A DNA stretch of 20,498 nt, taken from IMG/VR virus record IMGVR_UViG_2877280126_000007, one strand, 5' to 3'. The stretch's first letter is position 1. Each line of letters begins with the position of its first letter. Under the pieces are notes generated by a model. The model was not told the origin of the DNA. It did not search any database and worked only from the letters and a program-made list of their open reading frames with translations. The position numbers were made by a program, and so were the translations under genes. Positions 11,936 through 12,147 of the stretch are shown here, in pieces. The DNA comes from a virus. Taxonomy: Duplodnaviria > Heunggongvirae > Uroviricota > Caudoviricetes.

Positions 11936-11971
11936 GAAAGAAAAAAGGCCATCAGCAAAACTCTGATGGCC
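11936..11971 (-). terminator. Rho-independent terminator, minus-strand specific
   Basis: 9-bp stem GGCCATCAG / CTGATGGCC (11947-11955 / 11963-11971) with 7-nt loop, followed on the minus strand by TTTTTTCTTTC (11946-11936). Confidence 0.5.
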
Positions 11972-12081
11972 TGAATCACCTTTACCAATATTGTATGAAA
12001 AAACACGCACGACTAATTGACAATAATTTTCATTTCCATTAAAAAAGATCGCGTAGCATTCTTAATTCATGAGGAACTTTA

Positions 12082-12147
12082 CCCGCCAGCAATCTGAGTA
12101 GCGAAAGCTGTTCATCCCCAATGTTTTTGCTGGCGGGTCCTTTTTTC
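12082..12147 (+). terminator. Rho-independent terminator-like hairpin, plus-strand specific
   Basis: 11-bp stem CCCGCCAGCAA / TTGCTGGCGGG (12082-12092 / 12127-12137) enclosing a GAAA-tetraloop mini-hairpin, followed by TCCTTTTTTC. Confidence 0.4.

Follow-up and report, generated by a model that had tools for sequence, protein, structure and literature searches.

Within the window, the whole 20,498-nucleotide stretch of DNA analysed here, positions 11912-12451 form a 540-bp island of lambdoid-prophage DNA enclosed between an IS110-family and an IS3-family element. The remainder, a prophage in decay, contains IS1, IS3-family elements and three IS600-like copies, and also a hok/sok-type toxin-antitoxin locus at 18091-18416 (Rfam sok, 117 bits; 70-aa ORF at 18204-18416). 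The homology with the reference prophage in CP011416 (locus L001) stops at window 12451 (BLAST), and the IS3-family element found there is one that we take to be IS911-like. The features of the island and its borders are as follows.

10256-10453, minus strand: remnant of a class II holin gene with its ATG at 10453 (BLAST to the L001 holin, 5779-5994), its 3' end truncated by an IS3-family element
10464-11911, plus strand: IS110-family insertion that splits the region from the holin (transposase 10690-11886; Pfam DEDD_Tnp_IS110 and Transposase_20)
11936-11972, minus (late-gene) strand: pre-holin intrinsic terminator, stem 11946-11972, T-run from 11945 down to 11936
12017-12045, plus strand: promoter-like element recognised by its sequence, -35 TTGACA at 12017-12022 and -10 TAAAAA at 12040-12045, 17-bp spacer
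12052-12146, plus strand: predicted small RNA of ~95 nt, the 5' end placed from the -10 and the 3' end within the U-run
12081-12146, plus strand: terminator module of the predicted RNA, with a 12-bp outer stem, an inner hairpin and U6
12152-12173, plus strand: second hairpin, CCTCCTCCCC/GGAGGGGGG, whose fold (z = -1.6) is not better than shuffles
12450-13700, plus strand: IS3-family element forming the right boundary of the prophage island (Pfam HTH_Tnp_1 and rve)

A first-pass annotation of this DNA had described two hairpins with promoter-like hexamers between them, and this picture is confirmed overall. The original setting of the island is revealed by nine E. coli chromosomes that match 11912-12451 without interruption at 99.3-99.6% identity; none has a feature annotated there, and in all of them a class II holin gene comes directly downstream of the island. 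In CP011416 the island has the class II holin gene on one side and four clustered tRNA genes on the other; past the tRNA genes come a gene for a DNA methyltransferase, small ORFs and the gene for the Q antiterminator, all in one orientation, and the lysozyme, Rz and terminase genes come after the holin. The late genes correspond to the minus strand of the window. Since window segments 10256-10463 and 11912-12451 map by BLAST to contiguous CP011416 DNA with a 4-bp overlap, the IS110-family element sits ~10 bp upstream of the holin ATG. The earlier proposal that the small-RNA region was formerly directly upstream of the holin, and was split off from it by this element, is thus borne out. A second proposal, that the hairpins insulate the recombinase from read-through, describes only an incidental effect, both hairpins being identical in prophages without the IS110 element.

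The insertion point of the IS110-family element is a G/C homopolymer that forms the holin ribosome-binding site (uninterrupted sequence CTGTCGGGGGGCGGGATATG), with junctions at window 10454-10463 and 11912-11917. The identical junction is present in at least 11 other loci, including those of S. flexneri SFBU1023 and E. coli ECMA0423, and in uninterrupted copies the C-run at this point is 4 to 7 long. The notion that many different junctions exist at 11912 was discarded, as there are only two states, either uninterrupted with a C-run of variable length or carrying the same IS110 insertion.

The island forms the final intergenic segment ahead of the lysis cassette, and we propose that it would consist of two separable modules, a terminator that serves the holin and a free-standing RNA gene that points away from it. 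In each of the two hairpins a G+C-rich stem is followed by a U-run on one strand only, as is expected of an intrinsic terminator. The minus-strand hairpin, found by a consensus terminator scan where it had been claimed, reads from 11972 to 11946 as AGGCCATCAG-AGTTTTG-CTGATGGCCT and continues with TTTTTTCTTTCC (11945 to 11934). Its stem has 10 pairs, 6 of them G-C, and its loop 7 nt; the fold (-17.3 kcal/mol, z = -4.9) was equalled by none of 200 shuffles, and the terminator is strand-specific because the hairpin has no T-run on the plus strand. Where the prophage is uninterrupted, the holin ATG follows 41 nt downstream of it.

Such a terminator is not peculiar to this sequence type. When 80 prophage loci with the same holin family were collected and their upstream 500 bp grouped into at least 14 sequence types, at least seven of 14 unrelated upstream types had a holin-sense hairpin with a T-run at a distance of 39-110 nt before the ATG. 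EPEC E2348/69 and Sakai Sp9 have holin-sense terminators too, ~45-55 nt before the ATG. One locus (L068) has the same terminator stem with a different loop and completely unrelated upstream sequence, which argues that the terminator travels with the holin and not with the plus-strand RNA unit. The reading we favour, drawn from established lambdoid biology, is that the terminator shields the lysis genes from transcripts of tRNA and moron promoters: in the lysogen it would halt those transcripts from the tRNA and moron genes upstream that are not antiterminated, and polymerase modified by Q would read through it. A recurrent and little-noted pre-holin terminator would explain how the lysis genes are protected from these promoters, and this explanation would be useful even if the RNA described below were not expressed.

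In lambda, tR' lies upstream of S, and the pR'-tR' unit sets a late-strand intrinsic terminator before the lysis genes that Q-modified polymerase presumably reads through. The region analysed here likewise lies immediately upstream of a holin gene and contains a holin-sense terminator on the late strand before the lysis genes, and the first-pass annotation had offered, as one of its two interpretations, that the plus-strand region is a remnant of a lambdoid pR'-tR' late leader (a 6S-like RNA). We consider this very improbable. The Q gene lies at a distance of 3.4 kb in L001 and of 2.8 kb in a second type of locus (L002), with a DNA methyltransferase gene between in both and four tRNA genes as well in L001, and there is a promoter-like site just downstream of Q. 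The pre-holin region (87.6% identity) is, moreover, common to prophages with different Q proteins, the one in L001 being a Q-family protein of 123 aa and the one in L002 a YdfT-type antiterminator of 250 aa. Unlike lambda tR', then, the window terminator is not Q-adjacent and is shared by different Q types; nor is it preceded by a conserved minus-strand promoter, the TACAAT of the window being TACATG in the L002 type. The predicted RNA itself is on the wrong strand, antisense to the minus-strand late operon. A short minus-strand RNA starting from this TACAAT (11995 down to 11990) was also considered and rejected, as it has no -35 and its hexamer is TACATG in other types.

The module on the plus strand begins with TTGACA, a 17-bp spacer and TAAAAA. 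These hexamers had been noticed before, with coordinates one base too low. The composite motif TTGACA-N17-TNANAA has a single match in the 20.5-kb window (both strands), against 0.03 expected from shuffles; a consensus promoter scan did not list the element because its -10 is without the usual final T. The predicted RNA folds with -31.6 kcal/mol (z = -4.1). Its terminator module is built from an outer stem of 12 pairs (12081-12092 with 12127-12138), the 5' arm of which carries GCCAGCA (12085-12091), enclosing an 8-bp inner hairpin (12095-12102 with 12107-12114) closed by a GAAA tetraloop at 12103-12106; a 12-nt internal loop contains CAUCCCC. CC and six T residues (12141-12146) follow the outer stem directly, and there is no T-run on the minus strand. 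A simple terminator scan missed this structure because its loop is longer than 8 nt; its fold (-28.8 kcal/mol, z = -5.9) was not matched by any of 200 shuffles, and the plus-strand terminator and the GAAA-tetraloop mini-hairpin noted earlier are both present. In the uninterrupted relatives the unit begins ~110 nt upstream of the holin ATG. Its promoter and terminator have plus polarity and the holin is on the minus strand, so the predicted RNA is opposite to the holin strand.

Beyond the terminator, the second plus-strand hairpin is not conserved, its stem being lost in the L002 type and the length of its G-run varying, and it is probably not functional. The G-run (12166-12172) has 4-6 G among otherwise identical copies; it is slippage-prone and has no obvious function. 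Farther to the right, the minus strand of 12300-12389 contains a weak promoter-like sequence, TTGTAA-18-TACAAA, followed by a 7-bp hairpin with a T-run (12327 down to 12308) that converges with the plus-strand RNA. Its fold is no better than shuffles (z = 0.2), and it may be no more than the end of the tRNA operon that lies upstream in the intact prophage. A sigma-E look-alike within the unit (GGAACTT at 12073-12079, TCTGA at 12093-12097) was rejected, since its spacer is 13 nt instead of ~16 and it is not conserved in the L002 type.

The Rfam comparison that had been proposed for the predicted RNA was carried out, and no family matches it: in a scan with Rfam 15 the sole match in the window is sok, no family reaches the gathering threshold in the small-RNA region, and within 11850-12500 no score exceeds 22 bits, where 56 would be needed, with nothing relevant at E <= 10 either. 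Nor did the hairpin sequence have any match in the full text of 8 million papers.

That the region encodes a small protein, whether the 10-codon mini-ORF, a 97-aa ORF or a 63-aa "hypothetical protein", is scarcely credible. In L002-type genomes PGAP does call a 63-aa ORF, at the equivalent of ~11930-12121 (minus), but this ORF is closed in the window, and PGAP calls no gene at all in the nine genomes of 99.3-99.6% identity. The 97-aa ORF (12112-12405, minus) has no Pfam match. Hence the earlier statement that no protein-coding ORF of normal composition occupies the region is essentially right. The mini-ORF does exist as described, from ATG 12069 to TAG 12101; it has no Shine-Dalgarno sequence, however, and every substitution between types alters its amino acid sequence (MRNFTRQQSE vs MKNHTRQQPE).

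Variation in the region is far from evenly spread. Among 27 haplotypes the hairpin and U-tail are the conservation minimum, with 7 of 66 columns variable as against 109 of 231 in the flanks; for these related haplotypes the low variation of 12081-12146 relative to the flanks has a Fisher p = 2e-8, a difference that could partly reflect recent spread or recombination and not selection. The -35 TTGACA is invariant in all 27. Eighteen of the 20 base pairs in the terminator module never vary, and none is compensated: five of the seven variable columns are unpaired, one changes A-U to G-U, and one breaks a pair (G12089A, in the ColV type). Within the window type no compensatory change was found because the stems hardly vary, so that it is folding energy and conservation that argue for the structure.

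The unit is also common. Of 5426 complete E. coli genomes, 1451 carry its 289-bp core, in 948 chromosomal and 642 plasmid places; among GTDB species representatives the exact core pattern is confined to S. flexneri and E. coli, and no sequenced phage in the phage collection carries the core. It occurs in three contexts. In intact prophages the unit lies upstream of the holin. In Nissle 1917 and other B2 strains it is part of a remnant amid IS fragments, 2 kb from papI. In ColV-type plasmids it adjoins iss and Rz remnants. Individual carriers include Nissle 1917 (CP171242 905154-905400), CFSAN029787 (CP011416 18124-18412), IHE3034 (NC_017628 574765-575137) and S. flexneri SFBU1023. The fragment retained in the latter two, ~250 bp in length, consists of a decayed pre-holin terminator and an intact RNA unit (L005 3001-3247 in Nissle 1917; L006 3001-3233 in a ColV-type plasmid). 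Given the 2-kb distance from papI in Nissle 1917, and because the pairing region of PapR reaches into the PapR terminator stem, the sRNA PapR was suspected as the identity of the unit; it was dismissed, for the published cloning primers for PapR of UTI89 give a different sequence, GGGCTGAAGTCCGG ... TCTCCCAGCGCGGGCTTTTTTT.

These remnants without a holin allow the two modules to be told apart. The plus-strand hairpin retains -28.8 kcal/mol in the Nissle remnant and -21.5 in the ColV remnant; the minus-strand terminator drops from -17.3 to -8.3 and -9.6 kcal/mol. That the hairpin was kept while the terminator decayed suggests that the RNA unit is useful alone and the terminator only together with the holin. 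The Nissle and ColV types are not independent cases, since the left flank is common to both.

It could be argued that the plus-strand hairpin is a terminator and nothing else, a one-way backstop against antisense transcription from the bor/iss side or from inserted elements, in which case the TTGACA would be fortuitous. The weak -10 agrees with this, as does the presence of iss upstream and on the same strand in L002 and in the ColV plasmids. We nevertheless think it unlikely. A perfect -35 stands at the right distance and does not vary in the 27 haplotypes, and the composite promoter motif is expected only 0.03 times per window. The inner hairpin and the loop bases are conserved though they are unneeded for termination. 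Furthermore, the same promoter and terminator design is seen in five sequence families, two of which, PasA and PasC, are verified sRNAs.

A different possibility is that the RNA acts in cis. It is fully complementary to the late leader 130-230 nt upstream of the holin, and by pairing with that leader, or by head-on transcription, the unit might destroy or block stray late-strand transcripts and so be a second safeguard of the lysis genes. Its antisense placement within the sole path into the holin gene, beside the holin-sense terminator, is what such a role would predict, and PasA, PasC and the B and D types introduced below are placed in the same way. Yet in places that have lost the holin and late operon, the Nissle island and the 642 plasmid places, the unit survives and its -35 and hairpin are intact; PasA and PasC have many trans targets in RIL-seq (PMC8550237); and between the RNA and the translation-initiation region of the holin the predicted pairing gives no signal, being no better (-35.2 kcal/mol) than the mean for shuffled sequence (-35.7). 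As the explanation of the unit we rate a cis role as rather improbable. It is possible as a function alongside another, but by itself it leaves the retention without a holin unexplained.

Of the two interpretations offered by the first-pass annotation, it is accordingly the unannotated small RNA, a plus-strand transcript of ~95 nt, that we lean towards, and the late-leader remnant that we set aside. On the sequence evidence the plus-strand unit has a somewhat better than even chance of being an unannotated gene for an sRNA, directed away from the holin, alongside the pre-holin terminator. It would be a free-standing gene for a ~95-nt RNA, running from TTGACA-N17-TAAAAA to the terminator at 12081-12146. 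Several observations weigh against an RNA gene, among them that the -10 TAAAAA is without the highly conserved final T, and is TAAAAG in the Nissle variant, and that the commonest plasmid variant has the stem-breaking change G12089A. We infer that the RNA is transcribed, depends on Hfq and has targets; by analogy with PasA and PasC it would act as an Hfq-type base-pairing sRNA, for which the conserved GCCAGCA stem arm, the conserved CAUCCCC loop, or both, are the candidate seeds.

AgvB, AsxR and PasA-D, prophage sRNAs whose places between Q and the lysis genes are fixed, rewire core regulation in pathogenic E. coli. If the window unit is expressed, a frequent and unannotated regulator would have been added to ExPEC, APEC, Shigella and a probiotic strain, the window type being found also in Nissle 1917 and, next to iss, on plasmids of the ColV type, and the door of the lysis cassette would look like a general site for sRNA genes.

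The closest known parallel is provided by PasA and PasC, Hfq-dependent sRNAs that were discovered by RIL-seq in EPEC E2348/69 and verified by Northern blot (PMC8550237) and that are described as "directly adjacent" to a conserved holin/lysozyme operon (bioRxiv 10.64898/2026.05.13.724894). In E2348/69 we find PasA, an unnamed second unit and PasC all in the gap that separates a sialate esterase gene from the holin, and all antisense to the holin (PasA and PasC minus, holin plus, in NC_011601). Each has TTGACA, 17 bp, TCAGAA or TGAAAA and a body of 85-90 nt, and ends in a terminator of the form GCCAGC(A/G)...GCUGGC followed by a U-run. The second unit is a PasC-like promoter and terminator in prophage PP2, between PasA and the esterase stop codon (L003 2768-2867, minus; NC_011601 ~743267-743366), and is not named in the Pas papers cited here.

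The window unit resembles these genes in position and design. It occupies the last intergenic region before the holin and lysozyme genes, on the strand opposite to the holin and adjoining a holin-sense terminator; it has TTGACA, a 17-bp spacer and a TNANAA -10; its predicted body falls within the range of 85-95 nt, and the 5' arm of its terminator is GCCAGC(A/G), with a U-run after the stem. That terminator, with its 12-bp stem and U6, -28.8 kcal/mol and z = -5.9, is of the kind expected in the Pas family, and PasA and the window RNA have a CGAAAG loop motif in common. The published PasA seed GCCAGCACCU (bioRxiv 10.64898/2026.05.13.724894) overlaps the PasA terminator stem and shares with the window the 7-mer GCCAGCA at 12085-12091, a match that, lying in a G+C-rich stem, cannot prove a common function. 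There are also differences. The terminator loop of the window unit is larger and branched (34 nt vs 10-17 nt), and the unit follows a tRNA/methyltransferase region and not a sialate esterase gene. A U-run of 7 or more is reported for Hfq-binding sRNAs (PMC5558911), in contrast to the 6 of the window RNA, which is a point against an RNA gene of this kind.

Sequence comparison does not join the two. With a word size of 7, blastn finds no match between the PasA/PasC loci and the window locus; an nhmmer profile of six Pas units has no match on the window unit; and a covariance model built from seven Pas units gives window 12046-12146(+) 10.5 bits (E = 1.9), below chance matches to IS copies. A BLAST search with PasA of the 5426 complete E. 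coli genomes retrieved 692, none through a unit of the window type. By analogy, the window unit probably works like PasA and PasC; we do not file it as a member of that family, since membership by sequence cannot be shown. The published survey of PasA and PasC took the EPEC sequences as BLAST queries, with a word size of 28 for the Escherichia and Shigella genomes, and would therefore miss the window sequence type, which is the commoner of the two: 27% vs 13% of complete E. coli genomes, or 1451 genomes and 642 plasmid places vs 692 genomes and 8 plasmid places for PasA.

Two further sequence types have the same design. A search with the pattern of the stem arms retrieved the B type, in 19 loci of the viral collection (IMG/VR) and 70 E. 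coli genomes, between the 3' end or stop codon of an esterase-like gene and a DUF1378 gene. It has TTGACA-N17-TAGAAA, ~95 nt and GCCGCCAGCA...UGCUGGCGGC, with the loop block GUUCAUCCC in common with the window RNA; one pair at the foot of the stem is swapped between the two types, C-G in one and G-C in the other. An example lies at L144 862-995 (minus), and its E. coli carriers are mostly non-O157 STEC. With a pattern for the whole design, 144 of 147 unit instances among the matches listed belong to three clusters, namely the PasA type, the PasC-like type and a D type, and 3 are singletons. The D type is present in 947 of the 5426 E. coli genomes, including O157:H7. Its positions in two loci are as follows.

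L208 5343-5458, plus strand: D type
L328 6094-6203, minus strand: D type of Sakai Sp5 (NC_002695 ~1272093-1272202)

The D type consists of TTGACA-N17-T(T/A)AAAA, ~60 nt, CCGCCAGC-loop-GCTGGCGG and a U-run. It fills the gap between the esterase and DUF1378 genes in Sakai Sp5, and its promoter TTGACAATAAGAACTGTTTTCATTAAAAA is close to that of the window type, the core TTGACAAT..TTTTCATTAAAAA being common to both. Both B and D have the design and orientation of the window unit and identical CCGCCAGC/GCUGGCGG arms; unlike it, they sit, still ahead of the holin, between the esterase stop codon and the DUF1378 gene. The profile links are marginal: E = 6e-5 to 3e-3 between window and B in a pre-selected database and 0.05 in the reciprocal search, and E = 0.05-0.4 between window and D, these comparisons among the window (A), B and D types being made partly in pre-selected databases. 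None of the A, B and D types is present in Rfam.

A published Hfq-CRAC data set from the Sakai strain bears on the D type. Table S2 of Tree et al. 2014 (PMC4104026) lists no Hfq-CRAC or EcOnc peak at the Sp5 D-type site and no Hfq-CRAC peak at the Sp9 pre-holin coordinates; the missing Sp5 peak argues mildly against strong expression of the D type under their conditions. EcOnc10-12 are located elsewhere, downstream of Rz.

We can suggest, tentatively and with considerable doubt, that a single superfamily of pre-lysis antisense sRNAs has diverged into the window unit, PasA, PasC and the B and D types, all alike in promoter design and with the GCCAGC seed/terminator arm in common, and that the window type was retained for its own sake after prophage decay. 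If this were true, lambdoid prophages would carry one such sRNA at the door of the lysis cassette, and the window type would be a widespread and unrecognised host-directed regulator, kept on ColV-type virulence plasmids by iss and in B2 pathogenicity islands including that of Nissle 1917.

A final comparison is with AgvB and AsxR, themselves Hfq-type sRNA genes of lambdoid prophages (PMC4104026). The Rfam models of this type, RF02702 and RF02703, have no match in the small-RNA region, and these sRNAs differ from the predicted RNA in being only 51-60 nt long with a conserved 3' region of their own. Their location differs too: it is the upstream end of the moron region, with stx or tRNAs on one side and the esterase gene on the other. 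What AgvB, AsxR and the convergent moron-site sRNAs (PMC4104026) have in common with the window unit is a fixed position between Q and the lysis genes and, for some of them, an orientation antisense to the late strand.
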